Of a stretch of 64,000 bases of DNA, positions 1,267 through 58,058 are shown piece after piece. Positions within the stretch are counted from its first letter, which is position 1. Every line of letters starts with the position of its first letter. The notes below the pieces were generated by a model, which did no database searches, was not told the DNA's origin, and saw only the letters and a program-made list of their open reading frames with translations. This DNA comes from an uncultured Enterobacteriaceae bacterium (lineage in GTDB: Bacteria > Desulfobacterota > Binatia > Bin18), in contig CAYWPF010000120.1 of assembly GCA_964460065.1 (NCBI GenBank), positions 151 to 64,150 of the forward strand. Direction: 5' to 3'. The position numbers and the translations under genes were made by a program.

Positions 1267-1545
1267 TATAATCTTCCTTTCCCTAAGCAACTTTGTTTCA
1301 GAAACCTCGAATGGTGTGATTCAACGCGGGTATAGTAGCAGTTGTTGGAGGTTGCGTCAGCTGTGTAGTTTAGATCAGTCGGTAGTTGGACCGTGAAGGC
1401 AGGTCAATCTGCAAATCAGGTAACGGGCAGGCGTGTGGTCTTGCACTTTGCCCTCGGGGTACGTACGCTGAATTCCGGATGAGGAAACTGAAGATAGATC
1501 GCCGAAGTGCATACGACTGGCTTTGGCCGGTGTTTTTTTCGATAG

Positions 1546-1619
1546 GCGTCCGTAGCTCAATTGGATAGAGCAACGGGCTTCGAACCCGTAGGGTGGGTGT
1601 TCGAGTCACCCCGGACGCG
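1546..1619 (+). tRNA. tRNA-Arg (anticodon TCG)
   Basis: Hand-folded cloverleaf: acceptor GCGTCCG/CGGACGC, D-arm GCTC/GAGC, anticodon stem ACGGG/CCCGT with loop CTTCGAA, T-arm GGGTG-TTCGAGT-CACCC; 74 nt. Confidence 0.85.
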
Positions 1620-1624
1620 TTGTA

Positions 1625-2614
1625 TTGGAAGCTACCAAGCTTCCCAAGACAAAAAACGATTTGGTGAAACTTTCAAGACTAGTGTGTAGTGTCGGTCTAA
1701 GTATCGGGTGCGGCTATTTAGCATTTCAAGGTGTTGAGTCTTTCCCACCTTGGTCGTCGTTGCTCCGGATCGATATGGGCCTTGCTCTCTTGGCGACTGC
1801 CTGGCTCGGTCTGATCTTCGTTGTCCGCGCGTACCGCTGGCGTGCGCTACTACTTCCGGCGGTGCCTGTCGATTTGTCTTCCTGTTTCTCTGCCACGGTC
1901 ATAGGATTTATGGGGAATAATATTCTGCCGCTACGTGGAGGCGAAATTTTGCGAATATACGCGTTGTCGAGGTTAGGGGCTGTACCTCCAAGCACTGCAA
2001 TTGCGACCGGTATTTTTGATCGGTTGTTCGATGTGTTGGCTGTGACTATGCTGATTTTGATTTGTGTGCCGCTTGCGCCGGTGCTGAAAGAATATCGGAT
2101 CGTCGCTGTTGTGGGGCTGAGTGTTGTCGTTGGAGTGTTCGGGGCAAGCCTGGGTCTAACCTATGCGAGCCGAATAGGCCGGTGGCTGTGGTTACCTCAT
2201 CGGATACGTTTGGCGGTAGACCGCATCTCGAAAGACTTACAAGTCTTTCGAGATGTACGTCTTCTTTTGAAAACGATCGTTTCCACCCTGGTTATCTGGT
2301 TGGGCATGGTCGTCTATTTCTGGATTTTGTTGTGGTCGTACGGTCTCATGTTGCCTGTCGAAGTATCGCTGTTGCTGGTGGTATTTCTTGCAGTCGGAGT
2401 TGCATTGCCATCCGCGCCGGGTTTCGTCGGTGTGTATCACTATGCGGTTGTATTAGCGCTTTCGCTCTTTGCCGTCGAAAAGGGCGATGCCGTTGCATTC
2501 TCGGTCGTTTCCCACTTGCTCCAGTATATCCCCGTTACCGCTGTTGGGCTGGGTTTGCTAATTGGATCGGGTATTTCGTTATGGCCTCAACGACCGCAAG
2601 AAAACGGGTACTAG
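1625..2614 (+). CDS. UPF0104 / lysyl-PG-synthase-TM-like flippase-like polytopic membrane protein
   Basis: multi-TM protein with NILPLRGGEILRIYALSR motif characteristic of flippase-like domain; TTG start 5 nt after tRNA is uncertain; overlaps next gene. Confidence 0.55.
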   Translation: MEATKLPKTKNDLVKLSRLVCSVGLSIGCGYLAFQGVESFPPWSSLLRIDMGLALLATAWLGLIFVVRAYRWRALLLPAVPVDLSSCFSATVIGFMGNNILPLRGGEILRIYALSRLGAVPPSTAIATGIFDRLFDVLAVTMLILICVPLAPVLKEYRIVAVVGLSVVVGVFGASLGLTYASRIGRWLWLPHRIRLAVDRISKDLQVFRDVRLLLKTIVSTLVIWLGMVVYFWILLWSYGLMLPVEVSLLLVVFLAVGVALPSAPGFVGVYHYAVVLALSLFAVEKGDAVAFSVVSHLLQYIPVTAVGLGLLIGSGISLWPQRPQENGY

Positions 2615-4068
2615 GTCTTCGTGGGCACGCTGCAGCGGGTGGCAATTCCATGAAAAATAGGGTGGGTGCGAACGCCGCGAGAAATTTGAGTGCAACGATC
2701 GCGCTGGGCACTATTGCGGCGGGTGTCTATTACGTAATTGCCTATTTAAGTGTGGACTTTACATACGGAATTGAGCATGAGAAAAGACCAATTTTGTGTT
2801 TCATCCTGCTATATACGGCGGCCTTTTTACCTTACATGGTGGCCATCAAGGTGCTGCGACGTTCCGGGGAGGTACGACATGGGGCGGCTATAGTTCTTTT
2901 GTTCGCAATATTATTCCGTGCGATACTGTTAACTTCCGCTCCAATCCAGGAAGATGATTTCTACCGTTATTTGTGGGATGGGGCTGTCGTGGCAAATGGG
3001 TTGAACCCTTACAAGTACGCCCCTGCGGATTTGAAAGACAACGGCGACCGGGATTCGTCCCGGCTACTCTATGTCGTGTTGCGACGTAGTAATGATCAGT
3101 TGGAGTCGGCGTGGAGCCGGGTGAACCACGCAACGGTCCCGAGTATTTATCCGCCCGTCGCACAGGTGGTGTTTGCTGCCGCATCCCTTATTGAGCCCGG
3201 AAGCTTGTTGGCGCTGCGCCTATTGTTGTTGGCGTTTGACCTGGCCGTCTGTTTGGGTGTGATGTTAATTCTGACGCATCTAAGATTTCCCCCTAGCCTT
3301 TGTGTGGTTTATGCCTGGTCTCCTCTGGTCGTTAAAGAGACAGTAAATTCCGCTCATTTCGACGTAGTCCCGACTTTTTTTGTCGTGTGTGCCTTGTTCG
3401 CAACGTTCAAGGCGCGGACCGTGTTAGGGTTTGTCTGTTTGGGGATTGCGATTTGCGCAAAATTGTTTCCTATCGTGTTCGTGCCGTTCTTCGTTTGTCG
3501 GGCGATACGGCAAAATGGCGTCACGGCCGCGTTGCGGGCGGCTGGCCTGATGTGTCTGGTCATTGGCGCCATCTACATGCCGTTTGTGGATGCGGGAAAT
3601 GGTCTGTGGCGCGGTTCAATGACCTTTGCGGAAAAATGGGAAACGAATAGTCTTTTGTTCTCGGTTGTAAGGCTATTTTTTGCCGAGCGATGGTCTGCAA
3701 ATGCGGCAATAGCCATAATTGCAGTAGGGGTGATCTTGGCGCTAGTCCTAAGAATCAAAGACTGGAGCGATCAAAACCTCGCTTGGGCGTGTTTTGTTAC
3801 CCTGGGAGGAGTGTTGTTAATTAGCCCCGTTGCGAACCCGTGGTACTTTGTGTGGATTATGCCGTTTTTGTGTCTATTCCGGAGCGAGGCCTGGGTCTCG
3901 TTAACCGCATTATTGGGCATGTATTACTTGAATTTCTATTTCATGTATTCTGGGCTTTCGGCTTACGTCGACTATGTGAAATGGTTTGTGTTCCTTCCAT
4001 TCTTCTTGTTTTTAGCGCGAGAAGTGTGGCAAGTCAGAAAAGGGGAAACGCTCATTGGACACGGATAA
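2581..4068 (+). CDS. GT-C fold polytopic membrane glycosyltransferase (ArnT/PMT/DUF2029-like)
   Basis: about 12 TM helices; acidic first-loop motif EDDFYRYLWDG; start taken at ATG 2581 (or 2650); the 2062-2580 in-frame extension overlaps the upstream gene and is discounted. Confidence 0.6.
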   Translation: MASTTARKRVLGLRGHAAAGGNSMKNRVGANAARNLSATIALGTIAAGVYYVIAYLSVDFTYGIEHEKRPILCFILLYTAAFLPYMVAIKVLRRSGEVRHGAAIVLLFAILFRAILLTSAPIQEDDFYRYLWDGAVVANGLNPYKYAPADLKDNGDRDSSRLLYVVLRRSNDQLESAWSRVNHATVPSIYPPVAQVVFAAASLIEPGSLLALRLLLLAFDLAVCLGVMLILTHLRFPPSLCVVYAWSPLVVKETVNSAHFDVVPTFFVVCALFATFKARTVLGFVCLGIAICAKLFPIVFVPFFVCRAIRQNGVTAALRAAGLMCLVIGAIYMPFVDAGNGLWRGSMTFAEKWETNSLLFSVVRLFFAERWSANAAIAIIAVGVILALVLRIKDWSDQNLAWACFVTLGGVLLISPVANPWYFVWIMPFLCLFRSEAWVSLTALLGMYYLNFYFMYSGLSAYVDYVKWFVFLPFFLFLAREVWQVRKGETLIGHG

Positions 4069-4816
4069 AAGGTTAATACGGTGTTTAGGCTCGTCGATAA
4101 TCGCCTGTCTTTTTGCGACATTATTAATTTGGGACCTTTCAGGAGCTCCGCAGGCACATGGCGCCGGTACGGAGGGCCGACGCGGTCTGGAATTGGTAGG
4201 CGATGGTGGTCCGGTTCGTATATCAGGTTCAATATATCCGAACCGATTTAACCTTGGCAGGCACGAGGGTGCCCGTTACCACTTAATCACATGGAATGGC
4301 GGGACCTCGGATGGAGCCCTGATCGAGACTGAAGTGGATGACCTGGATTTCCACGATGCCCTGATAGAGCTCGGTGCGTTGCCCGGAAATAACCTTTCGA
4401 TGCAGTCATGGGATCAGCGGCACGATCGCAATAGTATTTCGCCGGAGAAAAGACTGGAAGGTAGTGCTCTTTCTCTGAAGCTGGAATGGGCGGGAGGAGT
4501 GTTATTGCGTATGGAAGACGCGTTTCGAACAGTTAGAGTAACAGAGGAGGCTGCGAGAGAGCAGTCTGAGATAACTTGGACTTTTGGTGGAAATAGGGAC
4601 CGATGGTTCAACAATATACCCTTCTCCCCGCGTCCAGGATGCCTCGTGTGTCTGTACAGTTGTCCTAGTGGTAAAGTGGGAAATGGAGCGCTAAGTGTTG
4701 CAGAGTACGAACGGTTTCCTACCCGATTTGAGGTCGATATAGCAAAATTACCGGCAGACGGTACTGAGGTAACGGTCGTGTTTGAGGTCGTGCGTCAGAG
4801 GCCTGGGAATGAGTGA
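4055..4816 (+). CDS. secreted/periplasmic hypothetical protein
   Basis: N-terminal signal-like hydrophobic segment; start overlaps stop of upstream gene (translational coupling); no recognisable family. Confidence 0.5.
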   Translation: MDTDKRLIRCLGSSIIACLFATLLIWDLSGAPQAHGAGTEGRRGLELVGDGGPVRISGSIYPNRFNLGRHEGARYHLITWNGGTSDGALIETEVDDLDFHDALIELGALPGNNLSMQSWDQRHDRNSISPEKRLEGSALSLKLEWAGGVLLRMEDAFRTVRVTEEAAREQSEITWTFGGNRDRWFNNIPFSPRPGCLVCLYSCPSGKVGNGALSVAEYERFPTRFEVDIAKLPADGTEVTVVFEVVRQRPGNE

Positions 4817-5516
4817 ACAGACCCCGCGTCCCGGCGCTCGAATTGCTGTGATAATTCCGGCACTCAACGAAGAAGCTTCCTTGCCCAAAGTGTTGACCTC
4901 TTTGCCGTGGGAGGCCGTGGACAAGGTGGTTGTGGTTGACAACGGATCGCGTGACAGCACCGCAGACCTGGCGCGTGCCGAGGGTGCGACCGTCCTTCAC
5001 GAGAACCGAAGAGGGTACGGGTGGGCGTGCCTCGCGGGTATAAGATTCCTTGAGGACTCTTCGCCGGATGTGGTGGTTTTTCTCGACGGGGACTTTAGTG
5101 ATTATCCGGAGGACCTCTACGACGTGGTACGCCCGATAGTACACGAGGATTATGACTTCGTGGTGGGTACCCGGACTCAACTGGCAGGGAAGGGCGCGCT
5201 ATTGTGGCATGCTCGTTTTGGAAATGCCTTAACAACGCTGTTGATACGTTGGCTTTATGGGTTTACTTACTCTGACCTCGGCCCTTTCCGGGCAATAAAA
5301 TACCATCGTCTTTTGGAATTGAATATGAGAGACAAGACTTACGGCTGGACGGTAGAAATGCAGGTGAAGGCCGTACGGAAAAGACTAAGGGTTACGGAAG
5401 TTCCAGTACGCTATAGAAAGCGTATTGGTAGATCGAAGGTGAGCGGCACGATCCGTGGTTCGCTTGGCGCCGGCTATAAGATTCTCTGGACGGTCGTAAA
5501 ATGTCTAAGGAATTAA
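4809..5516 (+). CDS. family 2 glycosyltransferase, polyprenyl-phosphate glycosyltransferase (DPM1/GtrB/ArnC-like)
   Basis: IAVIIPALNEE...VVVDNGSRDST...DGDFSDYPED motifs of the GT-A DxD fold; ATGAGTGA stop/start overlap with upstream gene. Confidence 0.8.
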   Translation: MSEQTPRPGARIAVIIPALNEEASLPKVLTSLPWEAVDKVVVVDNGSRDSTADLARAEGATVLHENRRGYGWACLAGIRFLEDSSPDVVVFLDGDFSDYPEDLYDVVRPIVHEDYDFVVGTRTQLAGKGALLWHARFGNALTTLLIRWLYGFTYSDLGPFRAIKYHRLLELNMRDKTYGWTVEMQVKAVRKRLRVTEVPVRYRKRIGRSKVSGTIRGSLGAGYKILWTVVKCLRN

Positions 5517-5836
5517 GTTTGGCAACGCACGAGTTAAAGTGGAATTTGGCGTTTGACTACGCTGACGTTAGATTCAGGCTGGTTCGCCTGTTTGATCAAT
5601 ACGGCTATGGGTATACGCAAACGGAAAGCCGTGAATCTGCGGATTTCGTCGTGGAATCACTAGGAGGTATTATTTTAATCGGGGTGCGCGCACAATTGCC
5701 GACGAGCAGTGCATTTAGCTCAAAGATACTGATACCGCGAACCATCATGCAAGTCTTTTTTTCTGGTGATGACGAAACGGTGAGGGCTACGTTCAAGAAG
5801 CAATTAACCATGGCTTTTCTCCGCGTGGGTGGGTGA
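5501..5836 (+). CDS. hypothetical cytoplasmic protein (111 aa)
   Basis: ORF overlapping both neighbours in a coupled operon; no family recognised. Confidence 0.45.
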   Translation: MSKELSLATHELKWNLAFDYADVRFRLVRLFDQYGYGYTQTESRESADFVVESLGGIILIGVRAQLPTSSAFSSKILIPRTIMQVFFSGDDETVRATFKKQLTMAFLRVGG

Positions 5837-6512
5837 AATGATCACGATAATTGTACCGACGCTCAACGAAGCGCCGAGAATAAAAGAGACGCTTCGTGCT
5901 ATTCGCCGATCGGGAGACTGTGAGTTAATTGTTGTGGATGGGGCTAGTACAGACGGGACGGTCCAACGAGCAAGCGAGATTGCGGACAAGGTAATCCTAT
6001 GCAAGCCGGGGCGGGCGAAACAAATGAATTGCGGCGCGGCGTTGGCGAGAGGTAAGGTCCTATTATTCCTGCATGCGGATACGCTACTACCCTTCAACTT
6101 TGCCTCACTAATAGAGCAACAAATGAAGGATCCGGAGGTAATAGGCGGTTGGTTCGATGTGTCTTTTGACGTATGTGGGTGGCAATTGTCTCTAATAAGC
6201 CGCTGTATGAATATGCGTTCGAGAATGACAGGTATCGCCACAGGCGACCAGGCCATTTTCGTAAGGAGCGAGGCATTCGAAGCAGTCGGTCGCTATCCTG
6301 ACTGGGACCTTATGGAAGATGTTGAGCTGAGTCGTCGTCTGAAGCGATACGGAACAATGGTTTCTCTCCGTGAGCGAGTGACAACGTCGGCGAGACGTTG
6401 GCAGCACGACGGGGTTTGGAAAACGGTATTTCGAATGTGGATCTTGCGCGGCAGCAGTTTTCTGGGGATTTCGTCCTCCGTGCTCCGCCCATTCTACAAG
6501 GACACGCGCTGA
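5829..6512 (+). CDS. family 2 glycosyltransferase (small GT-A; GRAKQMN / GDQAIF / MEDVEL motifs)
   Basis: IIVPTLNEA...IVVDGASTDGT...LFLHADT motifs; start GTG 5829 or ATG 5838. Confidence 0.75.
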   Translation: MGEMITIIVPTLNEAPRIKETLRAIRRSGDCELIVVDGASTDGTVQRASEIADKVILCKPGRAKQMNCGAALARGKVLLFLHADTLLPFNFASLIEQQMKDPEVIGGWFDVSFDVCGWQLSLISRCMNMRSRMTGIATGDQAIFVRSEAFEAVGRYPDWDLMEDVELSRRLKRYGTMVSLRERVTTSARRWQHDGVWKTVFRMWILRGSSFLGISSSVLRPFYKDTR

Positions 6513-6656: not shown

Positions 6657-7601
6657 TTAGAGCACTGAGCCGTCGTAAATTTGCATAACGGTATTTAGGA
6701 AATCGTGCGCGTGCGGTTTCGTCCGCTGGAAAGCATTTCTGCCGATTATGGACCCGAAACCTCCCCCGTCACGGATCGCGCGGACCTCTTGGAAAAATTC
6801 GTCGTCCCCCTTTGCCGAGCCGCCCGAGAAAATGACTATGCGTTTGTTGTTGAACGCGCTCTGTAGGAGATGACGTACCCTTTCGGCCTGGGTTCCAATT
6901 GGAATGTTTTGTTTTTCATATACTTTCCGGGCTTCTGGCAGTTCAATATGCTCGCTTGGCAGTTTGACTTTGATTACGTGGGCGCCCAACTGTGCAGCTA
7001 TTTGTGCCGCGTAAGATACTACGTCAATTGCCGTTTCTCCGGCTTTGCTTAGGCTTGAACCTCTGGGGTATGACCAAACTACCACGGCCAACCCTTTTGC
7101 CTTTGCTTCGAGCGCAATTTCACGGAGTTGTTGGTACATGGTCTGGGCCATCGTCGATCCCGGGTAGATGGTGAAACCGACGGCGACACATCCCAACCGG
7201 AGGGCATCGTCGACAGAACTAGTTACTGAAGACAATGGATCCGCTTCGTCATTGAGAACATCATGATTATTGAGTTTGAGAATGAGGGGGACACGATCGA
7301 GAAACCGATCGACGGCCGCTTCCATGAAGCCAATCGGCGCGGCGTACGCATTGCATCCTGCATCCATCGCAAGTTGAAAATGGTAGTCCGGATCGTATGC
7401 GTCCGGGTTCGCCGCGAAACTTCGGGCGGGCCCATGTTCAAAACCCTGATCTACAGGGAGAATGACCAATTTTCCGGTCCCCCCCAAACGCCCGTGGTTG
7501 AGTAGTCGCGCTATATTCGTACGTGTGCCGGGGTTGTCCGAAGAATACCAGTTCAAAATCTGACTTACGCGCTTCGTTAATTTTTTTACCCTCGCTGCCA
7601 T
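6657..7601 (-). CDS. fbaB: class I fructose-bisphosphate aldolase (DhnA/archaeal type)
   Basis: GTGKLVILPVDQGFEHGP closely matches the E. coli FbaB active-site region GTGYLSILPVDQGVEH. Confidence 0.85.
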   Translation of the reverse strand: MAARVKKLTKRVSQILNWYSSDNPGTRTNIARLLNHGRLGGTGKLVILPVDQGFEHGPARSFAANPDAYDPDYHFQLAMDAGCNAYAAPIGFMEAAVDRFLDRVPLILKLNNHDVLNDEADPLSSVTSSVDDALRLGCVAVGFTIYPGSTMAQTMYQQLREIALEAKAKGLAVVVWSYPRGSSLSKAGETAIDVVSYAAQIAAQLGAHVIKVKLPSEHIELPEARKVYEKQNIPIGTQAERVRHLLQSAFNNKRIVIFSGGSAKGDDEFFQEVRAIRDGGGFGSIIGRNAFQRTKPHAHDFLNTVMQIYDGSVL

Positions 7602-7673: not shown

Positions 7674-8687
7674 TCACTTCTGCGACGGGACTTTAGTATA
7701 GTACGATTCGGCCTTACGAACATCTTCGGGACTGCCAATGAGCAGTGGAGTTCTCTCATGGAGATGGTTCGGCACGAGGTCACGTATAGGAACGACTCCG
7801 TTGCTCGCGTGTCCGCCGGCTTGCTCTATTACCATGGCCATTGGTGCCGCTTCGTACATCAGTCTCAATTTTCCGTTCTTATTTTTGGGATCGGCCGGAT
7901 AAAGAAAAATTCCACCTTTGAGAAGTGTTCTGTGAAAGTCGGCGACAAGTGAGCCAACGTACCGGCCCGAATAGGGTCTATGTGTGACTGAATCGTTTTC
8001 CTGTAGATAGGCTATATAACTAACTGTTTCAGGGAACCAGTTGTTTCGACGCCCTTCGTTTATGCTGTAAGTTTTTCCTAGGGTCGGAATGCGTATATTC
8101 TCCTGTGACAGAAAGAATTCACCAATAGCACGGTCAAGGGTGAAACAGTGGACACCGTCCCCTAGAGTATAAACGAGCGTCGTACTGGGCCCGTAGAGGG
8201 AATAGCCGGCGGCAATTTGTCGTTTCCCTTGTAACCGTAAAGCGTCCTTTAGCCCTGGCTTCGGAACATCTGGACGAAGATGGATTGAGAATATAGACCC
8301 TATGGTTACGTTGACGTCGATATTGGAAGACCCATCTAGTGGATCTACGAAAACGACATATTTCCCTGTCTCCGAATTGCCGGAAATCTCCGCAGGTTCA
8401 TCCATTTCTTCCGAGACCATGTCTGTGACTAATTTGCCGTGGGCGAATGATTCAAGGAATACCGTATTTGAAATATCGTCTAATTTTTGAACGATCTCAC
8501 CCTGTATGTTGGTTTGGTTTGTTGCACCTAATGATCCGGTAAGGCCTGCTATGGTAAGTTGTTGCGAAATAATTTTAGTGGCTGTCGCGATTTGACATAA
8601 CACTTGCGAAAGCTCGTGGCGGGCATCTGCCGTTTTGTCCGCTTGGCCGATAATGTACTGAGCTAGGGTGACTTGTCTTTGTGGCAT
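7674..8687 (-). CDS. fbp: fructose-1,6-bisphosphatase class 1
   Basis: FVDPLDGSSNIDVNVTIGSIFSI and GYSLYGPST motifs; ATG at 8687 with GGAGGAA ribosome-binding site (the longer track ORF is discounted). Confidence 0.85.
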   Translation of the reverse strand: MPQRQVTLAQYIIGQADKTADARHELSQVLCQIATATKIISQQLTIAGLTGSLGATNQTNIQGEIVQKLDDISNTVFLESFAHGKLVTDMVSEEMDEPAEISGNSETGKYVVFVDPLDGSSNIDVNVTIGSIFSIHLRPDVPKPGLKDALRLQGKRQIAAGYSLYGPSTTLVYTLGDGVHCFTLDRAIGEFFLSQENIRIPTLGKTYSINEGRRNNWFPETVSYIAYLQENDSVTHRPYSGRYVGSLVADFHRTLLKGGIFLYPADPKNKNGKLRLMYEAAPMAMVIEQAGGHASNGVVPIRDLVPNHLHERTPLLIGSPEDVRKAESYYTKVPSQK

Positions 8688-9232
8688 CTTCTGTTCCTCC
8701 TCTGCCGGTTCAGGCCCCGGAGCAGGTCGACTCTGCATAGCATACCTGCGAGTTTCGCGCCAAAGTGTCGCATCAGTTCCTCCTGTGCCGATTGCAGGTG
8801 CAAAGTCATTTCGCTAGACCTCCCGCAAGCGCGACTCCCAGCTATTCCCATTTTAACTGTTACGAGGAGAGTGGACTAAGAAATTTAGATTATAGAATCA
8901 TCGGCCTCTGGCGTAGGCGTTTCCTGTGGGACGCTGTCTGTGGGATCCGTGTCAAAAAATCCCGCGGCTGTAATGGTCAAGAGCATGCTTGCACCGACCA
9001 GAAGTGCGAGCGAAAAAAAAGCAGGTTTTATACCCACGGTGATAGTGTAATCGTTTTCATTTTTAAAAACTACTGGTTGCATAGGAGAGCCCGGAACCCC
9101 TAGACACGCGTTTGGAAGAGAAGAGGTGGCCCTGTCGAATACATGTTCTAATGCACCGTGTAGCGGGTAAATAGAAGAAGTCGGCCGTCTATTTGGCTCT
9201 TTGTTTGGTCCGTTAGCAGGAAAGTGAATCGG

Positions 9233-9985
9233 TTAGCGGAATAAGTCAGCGTCTGCGGGCCGCTTAAGCGAATCACTGCCAATATCTGCTTTAGTAAATT
9301 GATACCCGCGTATCAAAATTGCCGGCATCGCAGCGCTTTTTTCCATTAGTAGCCCTGCCGCGGCGGCGAGTTCGTCTGCTACCGCTATTACTGTGTGATG
9401 AAGCTCGCGGCCTTGCAGGTCTTCCTCGCCTCGTTGATCGTCAAGCGGATCAAGTCCGGAGACTCCCAGCGCGAACTCGACAAGCCCGTCCCGCCAGGGG
9501 CGTCCGAAGGTATCCGTAATAATGACCCCTATAGAAATCTTTCTCGCTTGCTCAATGGCCAAGCGTATCTGACGAGCGGATCTATCGGGGTCCTCTGGTA
9601 GCAAAATGACGATGTCCTCGGCGATGGTGTTAGACGCATCAACTCCAGAATTTGCGCACACCCAACCATGCTTTGTCTCTGTTACCACTACTCCATTCTT
9701 CATCCTGACAATACTGTTACTCTCGGTTAATACCACTTCCACCATCCTAGGGTCTTTCTCCCACATCTCTGCAATTTGCACAGCAAATGGAGATGGAGTA
9801 ACGCTGTTCAGGTCCATTACGGCGCCTTCCGCCTTTGAAACAATCTTTTGACACATGACTAACACATCGCCATCTTTTATCCCTACTTTCGCTCGATCGA
9901 TCGCTCCGAGAAGCAACGCGGGTAGATCGTCGCCCGGTTTAATTTGCGGGACATCAGGAATAGGGATAATAGCTATGGTGTTCAT
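9233..9985 (-). CDS. cofE: coenzyme F420-0:L-glutamate ligase
   Basis: 250-aa single-domain CofE-like sequence (KIVSKAEG, GVDASN motifs); 4-nt overlap with cofD. Confidence 0.75.
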   Translation of the reverse strand: MNTIAIIPIPDVPQIKPGDDLPALLLGAIDRAKVGIKDGDVLVMCQKIVSKAEGAVMDLNSVTPSPFAVQIAEMWEKDPRMVEVVLTESNSIVRMKNGVVVTETKHGWVCANSGVDASNTIAEDIVILLPEDPDRSARQIRLAIEQARKISIGVIITDTFGRPWRDGLVEFALGVSGLDPLDDQRGEEDLQGRELHHTVIAVADELAAAAGLLMEKSAAMPAILIRGYQFTKADIGSDSLKRPADADLFR

Positions 9986-10974
9986 ATTCTTTCCTCGCTG
10001 CTCGGTTTCTCGCCCTTTTCGTGGCGAAAATCGATGATCTGTCTTGCCAGCGCTACGGATTTGCTCATGTTCGTCATGATTGTATCGGTGACGATGGTAT
10101 CCATATGCATTTGTTTTATCCGGTGACGCGTTGCGGCGTCCTTTTTTAAATCCTCTTGATCCAAAACGAAGGTATTCACAAAGTCTCTATACAAGTGTGC
10201 AACCCCAACGGACGACGCCTCAAATCCCAGTCCAGACAGCATGCGATCGGCAGGTCCTTTTATTGGTTTTCCAGCGACCAGCGGACTGACCGCTACAACC
10301 GGGGCCTTCGTGACTCGTAGTGCGTCGCGTACGCCGTTTAGTTTCAATATGGGGCCTATGCTGACGATCGGGTTGCTGGGCGGGAGCAGGATGAGATCCG
10401 CGTTGAGAATAGCATCGAGTACGCCGGGTCCAGGTTTTGCCTCATCGACACCTTGGATTTTTATGTCTAGCACTGTGCCTTCGCCTCGCATCTTCACGAA
10501 ATATTCCTGAAATGTCCAGGTTCCTGTATCTGTACTGACCACTGTCCGTACTGGGTCGTTTGTCATGGGAAGAACGGTTGCATGTACGTTCCAACGCGCA
10601 GCTAGGACTGCTGTGATTTGACTCAGAGTTTTGCCCTTGCGAAGTTGTTGACTGCGGTACAAGTGCGTTGCTAAATCGGTATCGCCCAATGCAAACCAAG
10701 TGTCAGAATAGTAGCGGCCGAGGCCTTCCAGGCAGCGATATGTTTCATCGGGGAGTCCCCAACCTTTGGTCGGGTCAACCGCGTCAGCGAGCGTGTAACT
10801 TATCGTATCAAGGTCTGGTGATACGGAGAGACCGAAAAACTCATCATCATCACCTGTGTTTACGATGGCGGTGAGGTTTTCGCTCGGTAGAACCCGTACG
10901 ACACCCCGCAATAGCTTGGCTGCGCCTACGCCTCCAGCTAAAGCTGTTATGCGTAAATTGGAACGGTTAGACAC
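9982..10974 (-). CDS. cofD: 2-phospho-L-lactate transferase (LPPG:FO transferase)
   Basis: ALAGGVGAAKLLRG...VNTGDD CofD/UPF0052 signature. Confidence 0.8.
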   Translation of the reverse strand: MSNRSNLRITALAGGVGAAKLLRGVVRVLPSENLTAIVNTGDDDEFFGLSVSPDLDTISYTLADAVDPTKGWGLPDETYRCLEGLGRYYSDTWFALGDTDLATHLYRSQQLRKGKTLSQITAVLAARWNVHATVLPMTNDPVRTVVSTDTGTWTFQEYFVKMRGEGTVLDIKIQGVDEAKPGPGVLDAILNADLILLPPSNPIVSIGPILKLNGVRDALRVTKAPVVAVSPLVAGKPIKGPADRMLSGLGFEASSVGVAHLYRDFVNTFVLDQEDLKKDAATRHRIKQMHMDTIVTDTIMTNMSKSVALARQIIDFRHEKGEKPSSEERI

Positions 10975-11010
10975 GGTTGCGCACGCATAGAAATTGGAAC
11001 TAGATTCGGG

Positions 11011-12297
11011 CTAATGGACTGAGTCACTCTTCTCGCGTTCGAAGGGGTGCACGTATCGGAATTGCTCTGAGGCCGCCAATTTCTTGTAGGAGCCGAATTG
11101 TTTGTCTGGATCTTCTATAAGATCAAGCGGGCTCATTTCATCATCGGCATGATCAAAAATTTTCCGCAATTTATAAGTTGTGGACCGTTCGGCCGGTGTT
11201 CTGTTTATGTCTCGGATGATCCGACGCAATTCCTTCGGCGGTACCAGTTGGCCGTATTGAGCCCCTGCGGAGGTCGAAATGCTCTCATTTATCAGTGTTC
11301 CTCCGAGGTCATTAGCCCCCACCGTGAGCAAGTGTTGGGACATTTTCAGGCCTTCTTTAACCCAGGAAGCCTGAATGTTTCGGAAGGTTGGACCGAGCAT
11401 GAGCCGGGCTATCGCGTGTACACGGATGACTTCCGCACCCGTCGCTCCCTCACGTACGCCTTTCACAAGTTTCCGCTGGTACATTGGGGCTTCTTGGTGA
11501 ATCAATGATAGGGGCACAAATTCGGTGAAACCGTTGGTCTCTTTCTGAATATCCCGAAGCAGGTTCATGTGCTTTACCCAGTGCTCGGGAGTTTCGATAT
11601 GGCCGTACATGATAGTGGATGTGGTAGGTATGCCGAGGCTGTGTGCCGAGGTGATAACTTCTATCCATTGCTTCGTCGTAATGCGTCCCGGGGCTATGAT
11701 GTCCCGTATCTTTTGATCCAGGATTTCTGCGGAAGTGCCTGGCAGAGTGTCCAACCCAGCATCCTTGAGGCCACGGAGGTACTCTAGGATTGGAATGCCC
11801 GACCGAACGGAGCCGTATAAAACTTCCTCAGGGGAGAATGCGTGAACGTGGAGGTCGGGGAACGCGTTTTTGACTGCGCGAGTTAAGTCGATGTATAAAC
11901 TACCCTTCATCTTCGGGGGCAAACCAGCTTGCAGGCAAACTTCGGTAGCACCCATTTCGATCGCTTCCTGAGCTCGGCGAATTATTTCTCCCTCGGGCAA
12001 AAAGTAGCCTTCTTCCTCCCGAAATTCTCTGCTGAAGGCGCAAAAAGTACAGTGCTTGATGCAGACGTTAGTGAAATTGATATTTCGATTAACCACATAC
12101 GTAGCGACGTCGCCGACCTGTCTTCGGCGCATTTCGTCCGCAACCAGACCTATTGCGTGCAGGTCGAGGCCGGACGCTGTACACAAGCGCAGCGCGTCTT
12201 TCCAAGAGACTTCCTTCTCCTCCATTGCCTGGTGGAGAATAGAGCTGACGTCGTGACTAATGCTGTCAAGTATGCCGTCTAGTGTTTTGGCTGTCAC
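11011..12297 (-). CDS. cofH: FO synthase subunit 2 (radical SAM)
   Basis: NINFTNVCIKHCTFCAF radical-SAM CxxxCxxC cluster in the CofH-type context. Confidence 0.8.
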   Translation of the reverse strand: MTAKTLDGILDSISHDVSSILHQAMEEKEVSWKDALRLCTASGLDLHAIGLVADEMRRRQVGDVATYVVNRNINFTNVCIKHCTFCAFSREFREEEGYFLPEGEIIRRAQEAIEMGATEVCLQAGLPPKMKGSLYIDLTRAVKNAFPDLHVHAFSPEEVLYGSVRSGIPILEYLRGLKDAGLDTLPGTSAEILDQKIRDIIAPGRITTKQWIEVITSAHSLGIPTTSTIMYGHIETPEHWVKHMNLLRDIQKETNGFTEFVPLSLIHQEAPMYQRKLVKGVREGATGAEVIRVHAIARLMLGPTFRNIQASWVKEGLKMSQHLLTVGANDLGGTLINESISTSAGAQYGQLVPPKELRRIIRDINRTPAERSTTYKLRKIFDHADDEMSPLDLIEDPDKQFGSYKKLAASEQFRYVHPFEREKSDSVH

Positions 12298-12358
12298 TGT
12301 ATGATCTCCTTAAATTCGGTCGGATATTGCTTTCTGCCGCGCGCCGAATTTGTTATTG

Positions 12359-13582
12359 CTACGCCGTAACTTCTACGTGAAGTTCTCGAGTGCGCGGCTG
12401 CAAGGCAGGTAGGAGGAACCCTGGTCTTTCAATATATTCCTCGTAAATTGCAAGTCTTTCGCGCAGAGAAAATCCTTCTTGATTGCAGGTTTTTTCCAGA
12501 ATTTCCAGATGAGGCCAAGCGGCCTCGGGATTCACATAATCTTTTGAAACGGGAGAAATTCCTCCCCAGTCATTTATTCCGGATCTGAGGATGAGTTTAT
12601 GATCGTCTGGGCTAAGGTTAGGCGGGGCCTGTAGGTTCATTTGCCCGCCGAGAAGGAGTCGGGCCACCGCTATTGTCCGTGCCAGTTCGAGGTTTTCCGG
12701 CTCCGGTGCATCAGCCATTCTTGTATTGGGCTTCGCTCGAAAATTCTGAACGATAACTTCTTGAATATGGCCGTACTTCTGGTGTAATTTGCGGATTGCC
12801 AGGAGGCTATCCACTACCTCCATTCGGGTCTCGCCAATGCCGATCAAAATTCCGGTTGTAAAGGGAATTTCAAGCTCACCGGCTTCACGAATCATCTTTA
12901 CCCGTACTTCGGGACGCTTGTCTGGAGCGGAAAAGTGCGCCATTCCCCGCTCGCATAGTCTAGGGCTTATGTTTTCCAGCATCAGCCCTAGACTGACGTT
13001 CACGTCCTTCAGTTTCTTCATTTCGGCTAACGACATGACCCCAGCATTTGTATGTGGAAGAATGCCATACTCGAGGGCGATTTCGCAGGCGCGATAAACG
13101 AATTCCGTTGTAGTTTTGTGTCCTAGCTTCGCTAATGCCGCGCGGTAGCTACTAAAAGCGTACTCAGGCTTATCGCCTAAACACATCAGGGCCTCTTTGC
13201 ACCCTTGCTCCTTGGCACGATCCAGCCACTCGCGGAGATCTCCATGGCTCATAGTCCAGGCGTCTGTGTCACGAGGATCTTTTCGGAAAGTGCAATATGA
13301 ACACCGGTCCCGGCAGAGGTTCGTGACAGGCAAAAAAACTTTTCGTGAGTAGGTAACGGTTTTGCCTTTATCGCGATCGCGAAGTAGGGCCGCAGCCTCC
13401 AGCAGTGCCGGTAGTTCCTCGTTAGGGAAATCTAATAGGGTATAGCCTTCCTCGGCGGTTACCGGCTCGTTGTTTAGGGCCTTCTCGAGGATCACTTGTT
13501 TGTGAGCTTTCACACATACCCCCATGCGGAACGGCACTGCCAGACTAGTAGGGCAGATCCAAATTGTCAACGGTTCTTCCAA
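12359..13582 (-). CDS. cofG: FO synthase subunit 1 (7,8-didemethyl-8-hydroxy-5-deazariboflavin synthase, radical SAM)
   Basis: VTYSRKVFLPVTNLCRDRCSYCTF CofG-type motif; start TTG 13582 or ATG 13525 uncertain. Confidence 0.8.
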   Translation of the reverse strand: MEEPLTIWICPTSLAVPFRMGVCVKAHKQVILEKALNNEPVTAEEGYTLLDFPNEELPALLEAAALLRDRDKGKTVTYSRKVFLPVTNLCRDRCSYCTFRKDPRDTDAWTMSHGDLREWLDRAKEQGCKEALMCLGDKPEYAFSSYRAALAKLGHKTTTEFVYRACEIALEYGILPHTNAGVMSLAEMKKLKDVNVSLGLMLENISPRLCERGMAHFSAPDKRPEVRVKMIREAGELEIPFTTGILIGIGETRMEVVDSLLAIRKLHQKYGHIQEVIVQNFRAKPNTRMADAPEPENLELARTIAVARLLLGGQMNLQAPPNLSPDDHKLILRSGINDWGGISPVSKDYVNPEAAWPHLEILEKTCNQEGFSLRERLAIYEEYIERPGFLLPALQPRTRELHVEVTA

Positions 13583-13585
13583 GAA

Positions 13586-13605
13586 ATATCACTTTTCCGT
13601 GATAT
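13586..13605. promoter_or_regulatory. operator-like inverted repeat ATATCAC-N6-GTGATAT immediately upstream of cofG start
   Basis: perfect 7-bp arms with 6-bp spacer, 4 nt upstream of the cofG ORF start. Confidence 0.3.
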
Positions 13606-13693
13606 TGTAAAACTGTTACCTATTGGATTGCGTTTCCGGCGGCTGCCCCTTATAGCAATAGCGCTAGAACCGGGGGAAGAAATGAGCGTCTTC

Positions 13694-14035
13694 TTACGAT
13701 GGCAACCATGGCGATTGGTAATGTTTTTGCCGTCGTATGGCGATCAGGGAAAACAGGAAACCCGTGCCGAGCATCAGCCAGCCTGTTTTACGGAGTACGT
13801 GGTAAAAGTCGAGTTTAGCTTGTGTGAATGCGAGTCGGCTCAATGCGTTGCCGGAGAAGTGGTGAAGTTTGGCCGTCTCTCCAAAAATCAGCACTTTTCC
13901 ATCCAAAGGCTCCAAGGAAGCAAGGTTTGTTTCATATTCTGCTACCTTGAACTGTGCTACCAGAGTGTTTCCGGCACCGAGGCCGAGCAGGGCGACGCCT
14001 ATAAGGAAAATACTACTTCGCCACAGTGATGACAT
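13694..14035 (-). CDS. small membrane protein (2 TM), hypothetical
   Basis: N-terminal hydrophobic helix and C-terminal TM; same strand and 112 nt upstream of cofG. Confidence 0.45.
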   Translation of the reverse strand: MSSLWRSSIFLIGVALLGLGAGNTLVAQFKVAEYETNLASLEPLDGKVLIFGETAKLHHFSGNALSRLAFTQAKLDFYHVLRKTGWLMLGTGFLFSLIAIRRQKHYQSPWLPS

Positions 14036-14282
14036 GCAGACCTCGCGGGGGGAAACACAGCACGGCTAGCACCTTACGAGGCCGTGGTCAACGCGCCTTC
14101 AGGACTGGGAATGCCTTACGTCACAATGGGAGGGGGTTACGGTCACGCCCGTTGGGCGTGTGGTTTAACAAGCGGGCGGTTGATAAAGGAAATTCGAGAG
14201 GTAGAGTGAAGAGAGAGAATAGTGATCGCACGGCAAATTTATGAGAGGCTAATCTTAGGCGAGGCTATAACGAGGAGGCAGG

Positions 14283-20353: not shown

Positions 20354-21721
20354 ATGGAAGATAAAAGGCAATTGCGGAAACTGTTCGGAACCGACGGTAT
20401 ACGGGGAACAGTGAATGTGGAACCCATCACATCAGAGACGACCCTCCGCGTAGGACAGGCACTGACTTGTGTTTTCCAGGGTGAACCCCAACATCACAAA
20501 ATTCTAATTGGGAAAGACACACGTTTGTCGGGATATATGCTGGAGACGGCTATGGCTTCAGGCATTTGCTCAATGGGGGGAGATGTCCTTCTAGTGGGTC
20601 CATTGCCGACGCCGGGCATCGCGTTTCTAACCAGAGATCTAGGGGCGGACGCGGGTGTAATGATCTCTGCGTCACATAACAAGTTTGAGGACAATGGGAT
20701 AAAGATCTTTTCCAACCGCGGGCTTAAACTCCCTGATGAGGTAGAGGACAGGATAACCGAACTAGTACAGGGCAATCGGATGAGTGAGGTACGTCCTACT
20801 ACCGGTTCAATTGGTAAGGCGGTACGGATTGACGATGCCCTCGCCCGATACCGGGATTTTGTGAAAAGTTCGTTTCCTAAGGAACTAAACCTGAGGGGTC
20901 TAAAAGTAGTCATCGATTGCGCGAACGGGGCGGCCTACAAAGTTGCGCCTGAGGTGCTCTCAGAATTGGGCGCCGAGGTGATCGCCGTTAGCACGAAACC
21001 TGATGGCACTAACATCAATGAGGATTGTGGCGCTCTACATCCTCAGCAGGTCTGCGGACTAGTGCGGCTGCACGAAGCTGATCTGGGAATTGCGCTCGAC
21101 GGCGATGCCGATCGTGCGATTTTGGTTGACGACGCAGGAGCCGTGGTGGATGGAGATGTAACTCTCGGCATCTTGGCGAAAGATAGGTTAGAAACGGCCC
21201 GCTTACAGCGGAAAACATTGGTAGCGACGGTAATGAGCAACCTTGGCCTCGAGGTAGCATTGCGTAAAATGGGCGCGAAGTTGGTACGAACACCCGTCGG
21301 AGATCGTTACGTCGTCGAAGAAATGCTCCGAGGGGGATACAATATTGGCGGCGAGCAATCTGGCCATATTATATTGCTCGATGTCAATACGACCGGAGAT
21401 GGGATTGCAACGTTCCTTTCCGTTTTAGCTATTATGGTACAAAACCAGCGCCCGTTGTCAGAAATTAGGCAGATCGTACGCCGGTATCCTCAGGTCTTGA
21501 TCAATGTGACTGTTCGGCAGCGAAAAGACCTAAATAAAGTAGAACCAGTATGCAAAATTATGAAAAATATCTCTGATAAATTGGGAGATAATGGTAGGTT
21601 ATTGGTGCGTTACTCGGGAACGGAACCCCTAGTGCGAGTAATGGTAGAAGGAGAAGAAGAGGGTGTGGTGCGCGCGTACGCGCAGGAAGTGGCCGACGCT
21701 CTCCAGGTTCACATTGGTTGA
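20354..21721 (+). CDS. glmM: phosphoglucosamine mutase
   Basis: GTDGIRG and SASHNKFEDNGIK active-site serine loop. Confidence 0.9.
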   Translation: MEDKRQLRKLFGTDGIRGTVNVEPITSETTLRVGQALTCVFQGEPQHHKILIGKDTRLSGYMLETAMASGICSMGGDVLLVGPLPTPGIAFLTRDLGADAGVMISASHNKFEDNGIKIFSNRGLKLPDEVEDRITELVQGNRMSEVRPTTGSIGKAVRIDDALARYRDFVKSSFPKELNLRGLKVVIDCANGAAYKVAPEVLSELGAEVIAVSTKPDGTNINEDCGALHPQQVCGLVRLHEADLGIALDGDADRAILVDDAGAVVDGDVTLGILAKDRLETARLQRKTLVATVMSNLGLEVALRKMGAKLVRTPVGDRYVVEEMLRGGYNIGGEQSGHIILLDVNTTGDGIATFLSVLAIMVQNQRPLSEIRQIVRRYPQVLINVTVRQRKDLNKVEPVCKIMKNISDKLGDNGRLLVRYSGTEPLVRVMVEGEEEGVVRAYAQEVADALQVHIG

Positions 21722-26747: not shown

Positions 26748-27722
26748 ATGACGCACAAGAAGAGCCGAAACCTGCGCGCAGTTGCGGGTGGAATAATGAT
26801 GGGCCTCGCAAACCTCGTTCCGGGGGTCAGTGGAGGTACAATGCTCCTAGCCGTGGGGGTGTATTCTCGTTTTATAGATGCAGTGGCCGATGTGACAACC
26901 CTTCGCGTACGCGGTAAATCGCTTGTGTTTTTGTTGCTGGTTGTGATGAGTGCTGGGCTTACCATATTGTTTTGCGCTGGGCCTATTAAGTCGGCGGTCA
27001 GCGAATATCGTGCCGTCACGTATTCGCTCTTCATAGGATTGACCCTTGGCAGCTTGCCGCTCGTGTGCGCGCAGGCAAAACCCATTTCCGGGGGATTTTT
27101 CTTTTTTGCTGTTCTATTTTTTTCGTTTATGATGGCGCTCACCTTTGGTCTAGGAGGTTCTGGCTCCACTTTAAGTAGTGAAGGGTCAGTGTTGCCGCTT
27201 TTGGTCGCCGGGTTCCTTGGGGCCGGGGCGATGATCCTGCCCGGATTATCCGGCGCTTACATTCTCCTCCTCTTGGGCCAATATCTGCCGATCCTACACG
27301 GAATCGATCAGGTAAAGGCAGGGCTTTTCGGCGACGCTGTGCCTGGCGGGGTAGACGTTTCCGCGTTAATGGAGGGGGTCGGCGTAGTAGGTCCGGTGTG
27401 CGTTGGGGTGCTGCTCGGCGTAGTCTTCGTCGCGAACATTATGCGATGGCTACTAGCTCGTTACCGTTCCAATATTTGCGGAGTATTGGTCGGTCTGGTC
27501 TTTGGTTCGGTTCTTGGGTTGTGGCCGTTCCGAGCGGAGCCGGCCTATAAAGCCGAGGGTTCGGTAGGCGTGCGAGCAGAGTATTCCGGGACCCCAGGAG
27601 CGTCCAGAGATGGAGCGAGACGTTTTTCCCTCAGATGGGAAGAGGTGGCCTCCTCTCTGTTGCTTGTTGGTATCGGCGCTACAATCACAATATCGTCGCA
27701 TAGATTTACGCGAGGCGACTGA
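26748..27722 (+). CDS. DUF368 family polytopic membrane protein
   Basis: duplicated GVSGG / GLSGA motifs of DUF368. Confidence 0.65.
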   Translation: MTHKKSRNLRAVAGGIMMGLANLVPGVSGGTMLLAVGVYSRFIDAVADVTTLRVRGKSLVFLLLVVMSAGLTILFCAGPIKSAVSEYRAVTYSLFIGLTLGSLPLVCAQAKPISGGFFFFAVLFFSFMMALTFGLGGSGSTLSSEGSVLPLLVAGFLGAGAMILPGLSGAYILLLLGQYLPILHGIDQVKAGLFGDAVPGGVDVSALMEGVGVVGPVCVGVLLGVVFVANIMRWLLARYRSNICGVLVGLVFGSVLGLWPFRAEPAYKAEGSVGVRAEYSGTPGASRDGARRFSLRWEEVASSLLLVGIGATITISSHRFTRGD

Positions 27723-57706: not shown

Positions 57707-58058
57707 GGGGGCGATCTGGTTTCGACGTGGGCTAGAAAGCCAGGGTTGCATGCCGGGGTGCTGTCCCGCCCGTTAAACGGACAGGCTGCTATTTAACTGC
57801 AGATGATTTTGATTACGCTCTAGCTGCCTAGTGCAGCTTGCGTCTTATCGGTCCGAGCCCGTAGGATCGAATAAGGCGATATAAATCGGGATAGGCTTGG
57901 CGTCGTGCTGAGGGGCCACTGGCCGAAACTTTTCCTTAGCTGGTCCGTTGGAATCTTGCTCGTAGGAGTCCATAGGACGAGATTAAATTATGAGCTACGC
58001 AATGTAGACGCCTTGAGTAGACTACTCTCGGACGCGGGTTCAATTCCCGCCGCCTCCA
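57707..58058 (+). ncRNA. ssrA: tmRNA (transfer-messenger RNA)
   Basis: 5' GGGGGCGATCTGGTTTCGAC and 3' GGACGCGGGTTCAATTCCCGCCGCCTCCA tRNA-like ends pairing as an acceptor stem; internal tag ORF ...GCA GAT GAT TTT GAT TAC GCT CTA GCT GCC TAG (A)DDFDYALAA; 16 nt after smpB. Confidence 0.85.

Follow-up and report, generated by a model that had tools for sequence, protein, structure and literature searches.

Several described systems build envelope glycans by a three-part logic. In the ArnC/ArnT and GtrABC pathways a glycosyltransferase of family 2 (GT2) loads undecaprenyl phosphate, the lipid-linked sugar is flipped, and a polytopic transferase completes the transfer. Mycobacterial phosphatidylinositol mannosides (PIM) and lipomannan are primed in the cytoplasm, flipped, and extended in the periplasm by Ppm1 and PimE; the catalytic base of PimE, D58, lies at the tip of the first juxtamembrane helix, where it is held by Y62 (PMC12041525). 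In archaea, a UPF0104 protein, a GT-C-like protein (arCOG00563) and an AglD-like or Dpm1-like GT2 occur in one neighbourhood, linked to N-glycosylation of the surface layer (S-layer), and UPF0104, found in archaeal AglD as the C-terminal domain, frequently shares one polypeptide with the GT2 (Makarova et al., 2015, PMC5898192). UPF0104 is also the flippase domain of MprF and the predicted flippase of the gpgSDF (P. aeruginosa) and hexSDF (C. difficile) systems, and the known substrates of the family are modified glycerolipids (PMC12713373; bioRxiv 10.1101/2022.03.11.483950). A locus that shares parts with each of these systems is found directly downstream of a tRNA-Arg gene in a 64,000-nucleotide stretch of DNA (the window) from an uncultured bacterium (GenBank assembly GCA_964460065.1, contig CAYWPF010000120.1, positions 151 to 64,150, forward strand), which is named as a member of the Enterobacteriaceae and placed by GTDB in the Binatia (Desulfobacterota; Bin18). 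Its six genes, g1 to g6, probably encode envelope glycosylation in the manner of Ppm1 and PimE, with a polyprenyl-phosphate-linked hexose as the donor and a membrane-anchored acceptor in the periplasm. Binatia are a widespread uncultured class of soil and other environmental metagenomes, and we know of no description of their cell envelope.

In the list of open reading frames (ORFs) of the window, six plus-strand ORFs follow the tRNA-Arg gene with no real gap and reach position 6512:

g1, 1625..2614, plus strand: flippase-like polytopic membrane protein of the UPF0104 / LPG_synthase_TM family (PplT, YbhN, AglD2)
g2, 2581..4068, plus strand: polytopic GT-C glycosyltransferase of the GT87 / MptA_B family (495 aa, protein P0001)
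g3, 4055..4816, plus strand: YdjY-domain protein, secreted or membrane-anchored
g4, 4809..5516, plus strand: GT2 of the polyprenyl-phosphate glycosyltransferase type (AglJ, Dpm1, ArnC, PpgS-like)
g5, 5501..5836, plus strand: cytoplasmic orphan of 111 aa
g6, 5838..6512, plus strand: small soluble GT2 of family TIGR04283

An initial annotation, made from the sequence letters, had already guessed at the families of these proteins, and Pfam and NCBIfam profile searches bore out all of its guesses. The GT-C enzyme, g2, matches PF09594 (GT87) at 46.7 bits (cut-off 25), and PF26314 (MptA_B_family) is precomputed for it in the public database. Its invariant motif, PIQEDDFYRYLWDG (residues 121-134), contains the acidic string EDDFYRYLWDG picked out at the start (residues 124-134), nine positions of which (E124, D126, F127, Y128, R129, Y130, W132, D133 and G134) are the same in 31 homologues of 38-47% identity. 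The motif lies past the third hydrophobic segment and the N-terminus is rich in K and R, so that hydropathy and the positive-inside rule predict a periplasmic location for the loop, where a GT-C enzyme would be expected to carry it. An AlphaFold2 (AF2) model of a natural fusion of this GT-C with a YdjY domain has a predicted local distance difference test score (pLDDT) of 70-97 over residues 1-460, the GT-C part. The best solved folds for this part are the Candida glycosylphosphatidylinositol (GPI) mannosyltransferase I with dolichyl-phosphate mannose (9wno), PIG-U, PimE (9dm5, 9dm7) and yeast ALG3 (9s6r), with target TM-scores of 0.52-0.67; ArnT (5f15) is among the weaker matches, and enzymes of the oligosaccharyltransferase (OST)/STT3 type score much worse. 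GPI mannosyltransferase I, PimE and ALG3 all use polyprenyl- or dolichyl-phosphate mannose as the donor and a lipid-anchored acceptor, while PIG-U is a subunit of the GPI transamidase complex. D126 and Y130 share the +4 spacing of D58 and Y62 in PimE. By this suggestive parallel, D126 would probably be the catalytic base and Y130 its hydrogen-bond partner.

The enzyme that would supply the donor is g4. It matches PF00535 at 73.7 bits, and its top NCBIfam matches are AglJ, dolichyl-phosphate hexose transferase and PpgS. All of these fall below their equivalog cut-offs (123 bits against 325 for AglJ, TIGR04182), so that the match holds at family level only. The best solved relative is ArnC (E = 4e-9), aligned over residues 8-212, the whole catalytic domain. 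Hydropathy reveals no hydrophobic segment or transmembrane helix in g4.

The third product was first described as a secreted unknown. The N-terminal hydrophobic segment is there (residues 6-32 by hydropathy), but the protein is not without a family: it scores 67.6 bits against NF040466 (cut-off 50), has PF27149 on record, and is thus a YdjY-domain protein, 27% identical to E. coli YdjY. A GCLxCLxSCPxGxxxN motif is invariant in the alignment of the g3 family, E. coli YdjY included. The partner of g3 is indicated by gene fusion. In three loci (L005, L032, L042) YdjY is fused to the C-terminus of the GT-C enzyme, as in proteins P0052 (707 aa) and P0046 (730 aa); with a hydrophobic segment between GT-C and YdjY, the latter domain should lie in the periplasm. 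The fusion is taken to show that g3 works with g2, and its role may be to bind the acceptor. The E. coli protein (b1751) is a lipoprotein whose gene is flanked by ydjX and ydjZ, both of the DedA family, and in RefSeq it is labelled a ‘4Fe-4S ferredoxin-type domain’ protein. Like it, g3 is predicted to be exported, carries GCLVCLxSCPxGxxxN and has neighbours implicated in lipid translocation; unlike g3, E. coli YdjY has no GT-C or GT2 gene next to it. A literature search found no experimental work on the function of YdjY.

How widely is this set of genes kept together? A scan of one genome per species returned at least 593 stretches encoding relatives, the closest nearly all from Candidatus Binatia, and 41 loci of the Candidatus Binatia type were compared by mapping the window proteins onto the fetched sequences and scanning these for tRNA genes. 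Three neighbours serve as landmarks:

tRNA-Arg, anticodon TCG, 1546..1619, plus strand: found by ARAGORN; Rfam RF00005, 71.3 bits
Aldolase, 6657-7601, minus strand: DeoC/LacD-type class I enzyme (Pfam), convergent with the operon
Fructose bisphosphatase (FBPase), 7674-8738, minus strand: assigned by Pfam

The complete set g2-g6 is present in 36 of the 41 loci, with g2 and g3 fused in three of the 36. The same convergent class I aldolase lies directly downstream in 32 loci, in 30 of them with the FBPase, and the tRNA-Arg(TCG) gene lies upstream on the same strand in 27. The order tRNA-Arg(TCG), (g1), g2-g6, convergent aldolase, FBPase is thus kept across Candidatus Binatia genomes. The nearest homologues of g2 are merely 46-48% identical to it. 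Median identity to the window proteins is 82% for the aldolase, 69% for the FBPase, 67% for g4 and 55% for g6, falling to 48% for g1, 46% for g3, 45% for g2 and 40% for g5. This pattern indicates that the operon is an old part of Binatia genomes, passed on vertically, and that change has been quicker in its membrane and periplasmic components. Between the tRNA and g2 the loci differ: the stretch may hold g1 (17 loci), g1 with MazEF, other toxin-antitoxin genes, an unrelated gene coding for about 300 aa, or no gene at all. The initial annotation had described a six-gene unit; six genes are indeed present in the window, but with g1 optional and its stretch variable, the conserved unit is one of five genes, g2-g6. 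The variable spot itself, between the tRNA-Arg gene (or g1) and g2, can be seen in L004 (7102-7673), L007, L023 (8975-9965), L036, L038 and L030, where it contains MazE/PemK-type or other toxin-antitoxin pairs, or the gene of about 300 aa, whose product has an ‘...ILDSCRYD...’ motif.

Beyond Binatia, a g4-like GT2 is the gene most often found next to this GT-C, and the pairing recurs in Nitrospirota, Omnitrophota, Planctomycetota, Acidobacteriota and others. In some of these loci the cytoplasmic enzymes are fused to one another. A single protein joins the g4-like GT2 to TIGR04282 (DUF2064, CofC-like) and to TIGR04283, the family of g6, in L057, L070 and L073; it adjoins the GT-C gene in L057 and L070, and in L073 about 4 kb separate the two. 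L067 and L071 encode a fusion of the g4-like GT2 with TIGR04282, and in L067 a separate TIGR04283 gene comes next. These fusions near the GT-C indicate that the cytoplasmic enzymes belong to one pathway with it. The assignment of g6 is firm at the family level (TIGR04283, 255.2 bits against a cut-off of 182, over the full model, 1-221; PF00535, 71.5 bits), which agrees with the resemblance, noted in the initial annotation, to small GT2 enzymes annotated near radical S-adenosylmethionine (SAM) and selenoprotein loci. No hydrophobic segment appears in g6 by hydropathy. Every complete Binatia locus has an orthologue, and a Binatia orthologue scores 269 bits against TIGR04283.

The remaining core gene, g5, has no match in Pfam or NCBIfam. 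Its family comprises 140 proteins at 90% clustering, in just 31 clusters among 1.84 billion representatives, and by these counts it is small and lineage-restricted. All the Binatia-type members end exactly in ...AFLRVGG or ...AFLRLGG. The AF2 model (mean pLDDT 83) has a beta-alpha-beta4-alpha topology with the last six residues disordered, and Foldseek returns weak analogues at TM-scores of about 0.5 (KA1, the N-terminal domain of spermine synthase, START/Bet v 1). The conserved flexible tail, together with a g5 stop that overlaps the start of g6, would suit a g5 that serves g6 as an accessory subunit and contacts a partner through its tail, a role that we infer only. The C-terminal LRVGG also recalls ubiquitin-like carriers of the ThiS/MoaD type. 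The predicted fold is not a beta-grasp, the operon and its flanks contain no ThiF/MoeB E1-type gene, and distant members end in TG, MG or AG; despite the tail, a ubiquitin- or ThiS-like role is therefore unsupported. In Binatia and in the window, g5 occupies the position that TIGR04282 has in other phyla. A degenerate TIGR04282/DUF2064 remnant was considered and rejected (hhalign probability 0.2%, not homologous). Apparent g5 matches inside the g4-TIGR04282 fusions of L067 and L071 were discounted as alternate-frame artefacts, which arose because the g5 model had been made from longest ORFs overlapping the 3' end of g4. Distant homologues (L088-L090, P0273; P0263-P0278) are Ala/Arg-rich proteins of about 100 aa that end in FLRV[TMA]G, and they are encoded by stand-alone genes beside ParB and ATP synthase genes and not beside glycosyltransferases, suggesting that the small domain is older than its recruitment into the operon.

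The optional gene, g1, matches PF03706 at 136.3 bits (cut-off 33.4) and TIGR00374 (‘flippase-like’) at 64.4 bits (cut-off 43.2), and has multiple hydrophobic segments by hydropathy. Its orthologue stands between the tRNA and g2 in 17 of the 41 loci, sometimes parted from g2 by toxin-antitoxin or other inserted genes. The UPF0104 family has GT2 and GT-C-like genes as partners in archaea too (PMC5898192). Judged from its distribution, g1 is dispensable or replaceable. Inside g1 the window contains a hairpin (2223-2256, plus strand; -27.3 kcal/mol, z = -6.8 against shuffled sequences) with a perfectly paired stem of 15 bp and a loop of 4 nt, and a T-rich stretch comes after it. In 4 of 12 g1 orthologues, whose genomes are seemingly GC-richer and whose energies are unremarkable, the 54 nt of greatest stability have a comparable position in the gene (offset about 470-550 nt). 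The hairpin could be an internal attenuator or processing site, or a product of chance.

From these parts the following scheme can be proposed. On the cytoplasmic face, g4 would charge polyprenyl phosphate with a hexose taken from a nucleotide sugar, as its family and fold suggest, and the lipid-linked sugar would then reach the periplasmic leaflet. There g2, an enzyme of the PimE / GPI-mannosyltransferase / ALG3 structural type, would transfer the sugar to a membrane-anchored acceptor by way of the acidic loop PIQEDDFYRYLWDG, with g3 as its periplasmic partner. In the cytoplasm, context and precedent suggest that g6 and the translationally coupled g5 most likely make or prime the lipid acceptor, and that g1, where present, moves either the glycolipid made by g6 or the polyprenyl-phosphate sugar across the membrane. 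The sugar may be mannose, a guess from the fold neighbours. The overall logic would resemble that of mycobacterial PIM and lipomannan synthesis, with cytoplasmic priming, flipping and periplasmic extension. The idea, already present in the initial annotation, of a lipid-linked sugar made in the cytoplasm, flipped and transferred by a GT-C enzyme is supported by the predicted families and folds. Two further genes of the window, 14-20 kb away, encode a DUF368 / VCA0040-like ‘undecaprenyl phosphate translocase-like’ protein (26748-27722, plus strand) and a phosphogluco/phosphomannomutase (20354-21721, plus strand); they could serve the pathway by recycling the carrier and supplying sugar 1-phosphate, respectively.

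Several observations weigh against this scheme. In its NCBIfam scores, g4 is far under every equivalog cut-off, and g2 is below those for MptA and MptB (23.8 against 439.4 for TIGR03459; 22.1 against 40 for NF038066), so that its membership by profile does not go beyond the broader Pfam family, GT87 / MptA_B. The fold matches of the GT-C part have modest E-values (about 1e-3), and the GT-C profile gives no sequence-level match in the PDB at E <= 1. The YdjY part of the fusion model had a pLDDT below 50, because its alignment was just 3-4 sequences deep, and was not used. In 24 of the 41 loci g1 is missing, so the pathway cannot depend on g1 for flipping. In L041 no g5 was detected and g4 and g6 are 88 nt apart (12777-14249); g5 may be dispensable there or encoded elsewhere. 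The name given by NCBI to TIGR04283, ‘arsenosugar biosynthesis’, points to other chemistry. Finally, the roles of g3, g5 and g6 are drawn from context only, and the enzyme activities of all six proteins are predictions.

What else could the operon do? It could modify lipopolysaccharide (LPS) as ArnC/ArnT or GtrABC do, adding a single sugar to lipid A, core or O-antigen. The three-part logic is identical, ArnC is the best solved relative of g4, and ArnT (5f15) figures among the weaker fold matches of g2. This reading is nevertheless unlikely: g2 belongs to GT87/MptA_B and not to the ArnT/PMT_2 or GtrC families, its closest folds all act on lipid-anchored mannosides, the operon lacks GtrA, ArnE/F, ArnA, ArnB and ArnD, and two GT2 enzymes together with g3 and g5 exceed the parts required to decorate with a single sugar. 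Alternatively, the acceptor could be a periplasmic or surface protein, with g2 adding a final sugar as in the archaeal AglD/AglS system and g3 as the substrate or a domain that presents it. Such protein glycosylation would draw on the same three components, UPF0104, GT-C-like protein and AglD-like GT2, that are tied to S-layer N-glycosylation in archaea (PMC5898192), and the best NCBIfam match of g4 is AglJ. It is improbable, given that the fold neighbours of g2 (PIG-M, PimE, ALG3) use lipid-linked acceptors, that OST/STT3 enzymes match far worse, and that the annotated flanks of the relatives contain no conserved S-layer gene or obvious target gene. Both are explanations of low probability, in poorer agreement with the fold neighbours of the GT-C and with the genes present.

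The name of the g6 family suggests a third explanation, an arsenosugar or arsenolipid pathway in which ArsS and ArsM would make a 5-deoxy-5-dimethylarsinoyl-ribosyl unit for transfer by g6. The TIGR04283 score of g6 (255 bits) lies above the cut-off of 182, and TIGR04282, the other ‘arsenosugar’ family, is found in the same neighbourhood in other phyla. Against this, TIGR04282 is absent from the Binatia operon, and both families are linked by fusion to the polyprenyl-phosphate-type GT2 and to the GT-C. Among the scanned ORFs of the window and the annotated flanks of relatives, to which the search was confined, nothing resembling ArsS or ArsM turned up, and CofG and CofH are the only radical SAM genes recorded beside the module. 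A literature search found no experimental paper on TIGR04283/DUF2064 or on arsenosugar glycosyltransferases. An arsenosugar pathway is thus very improbable.

The Ppm1/PimE system is the closest parallel to the glycosylation pathway proposed here. In common are a GT-C of the GT87 / MptA_B family with a modelled fold that matches PimE and an acidic juxtamembrane motif with Asp...Tyr at +4, a separate GT2 resembling polyprenyl-phosphate sugar synthases, g4, which like the catalytic domain of Ppm1 has no membrane anchor, and further cytoplasmic glycosyltransferases encoded alongside. The host, however, is related to Binatia and not actinobacterial, g2 does not reach the MptA/MptB cut-offs, PimE has no YdjY domain as partner or fusion, and the cytoplasmic enzymes are GT2 (TIGR04283) instead of the GT-B enzymes PimA and PimB of PIM synthesis. 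The archaeal triad differs in lacking YdjY, g5 and TIGR04283 and in its fused UPF0104, which here is the separate and optional g1. The gene set had been recognised at once as unlike both ArnC/ArnT and GtrABC, and the searches agree: the GT-C is of another family, Pfam and NCBIfam searches found no GtrA or ArnE/F flippase homologue in the operon, there are no sugar-tailoring enzymes, g3, g5 and g6 are extra conserved parts, and the operon is chromosomal and not a phage-borne or stress-regulated resistance locus. In gpgSDF, hexSDF and MprF, UPF0104 is likewise encoded with a cytoplasmic lipid-modifying enzyme, a likeness that supports flipping by g1 of a glycolipid made by g6; those systems differ from the operon of the window in using a GT4 or an aminoacyl transferase, including a deacetylase, and having no GT-C step.

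Apart from g5, all the proteins are members of families already described, and the logic of the whole is of a known kind. The five-gene architecture, the GT-C-YdjY partnership and the link of TIGR04282/TIGR04283 to a polyprenyl-phosphate and GT-C pathway appear to be undescribed. That the five-gene core is, all in one, an undescribed and class-wide Binatia pathway for a lipid-anchored envelope glycan, giving three families without a function their first context, can be put forward only tentatively and is more doubtful than not. If it were true, YdjY would be an obligate periplasmic accessory of the GT-C, with a bearing on E. coli YdjY; TIGR04282 and TIGR04283 would be cytoplasmic parts of a polyprenyl-phosphate-linked glycolipid route; and g5 would act as an adaptor or carrier of a new kind, with a flexible FLRVGG tail that is inserted into or modified by g6. 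A conserved PimE-like pathway outside Actinobacteria would mean that periplasmic extension of lipid-anchored glycans with polyprenyl-phosphate sugars as donors is wider than documented. Through gene fusion, three orphan families gain functional links that can be tested: YdjY is joined to the GT-C, and TIGR04282 and TIGR04283 to the Dpm1-like GT2. The families affected include the product of an E. coli y-gene and two ‘arsenosugar’ families of NCBI, a name that may mislead annotation in hundreds of genomes.

The operon organisation is well supported by tight junctions of 1-4 nt (overlap or gap) that recur in the orthologous operons, and the junctions of the window largely agree with those listed in the initial annotation. 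The TTG start of g3 (4055), with the Shine-Dalgarno sequence AAAGGGGAA, overlaps the g2 stop at 4068, g3 and g4 overlap by 8 nt (ATGAGTGA, 4809/4816), and the g5 start at 5501 overlaps the g4 stop at 5516. The pair 5829/5836 holds if g6 is given its longest-ORF start, GTG 5829; the public call for the same contig uses ATG 5838, 2 nt past the g5 stop. The 2581/2614 overlap of g1 and g2 stands with the public start of g2, 2581, and gives way to a 35-nt gap if g2 starts at the in-frame ATG 2650. This codon is preceded by GGGTGG, fits the N-termini of the orthologues better and is used by a cluster member of 472 aa; g2 may thus start there instead. As for g1, position 1625 is merely the first TTG of the longest ORF, and the orthologues begin 23-48 nt 3' of their tRNA. 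Alignment with the N-terminus of the L004 protein suggests that the true start is likely to be 1661 (TTG) or 1664 (GTG), which would place g1 42-45 nt from the tRNA and not 5 nt, as had been assumed.

The apparent spacing of 5 nt had led to the proposal that the operon came in by horizontal transfer, as a genomic island that integrated at the tRNA-Arg 3' end. Besides the longest g1 ORF, the variable stretch between the tRNA and g2 in relatives, with its MazEF or other toxin-antitoxin genes, could be read in its favour, as could genome OZ220487.1, where a 5,870-bp segment with g2-g6 occurs twice at 100% identity away from the tRNA. What was found around the module, however, is a conserved core-genome context. 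The order tRNA-Arg(TCG), module, aldolase, FBPase is kept in most of the 41 loci at 40-67% protein identity. GC content is flat throughout (0.48-0.54, about 0.50), and the 20-nt 3' end of the tRNA occurs only once in the 64-kb window with up to 3 mismatches allowed, so that no att-like repeat is present. No integrase or transposase family was detected among the flanking genes scanned (two upstream genes and the larger downstream ORFs); the flanks encode PhyH, ABM, aldolase and FBPase, and the other window genes scanned are housekeeping genes (TilS, FtsH, F420 biosynthesis, aspartokinase, transfer-messenger RNA (tmRNA) and others). Insertion of an island at this site is extremely improbable, and for the module as a whole it is refuted. 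A gene block that abuts a tRNA need not be an island.

Instead, the tRNA-Arg and the operon may plausibly be co-transcribed, because a promoter scan found no sigma-70-like site between the tRNA-Arg and g1 and the gap is only about 40 nt. On the other side of the tRNA, a terminator-like hairpin with a T-run (ACTGGCTTTGGCCGGT then GTTTTTTT; 1516-1540, plus strand) ends 6 nt before the tRNA-Arg 5' end, and no plus-strand gene lies immediately upstream of it. Only the duplication in OZ220487.1, a Binatia genome of 6.04 Mb, hints that the block has recently moved or been copied. Its two copies of g2-g6 (L025 and L026, at about 3.21 Mb and 4.88 Mb) are both outside the tRNA-Arg and aldolase context, and one is near a squalene-hopene cyclase gene.

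Directly past the aldolase and FBPase genes, the window carries an F420 biosynthesis cluster on the minus strand (9233-13582), with CofE, CofD, CofH and CofG and no CofC evident there. The housekeeping context further includes a squalene/phytoene synthase (31673-32713, plus strand), a protein of the IF-2B family, to which methylthioribose-1-phosphate isomerase (MtnA) belongs (52984-54027, plus strand), and a tmRNA (57707-58058, plus strand) with the tag peptide ADDFDYALAA.

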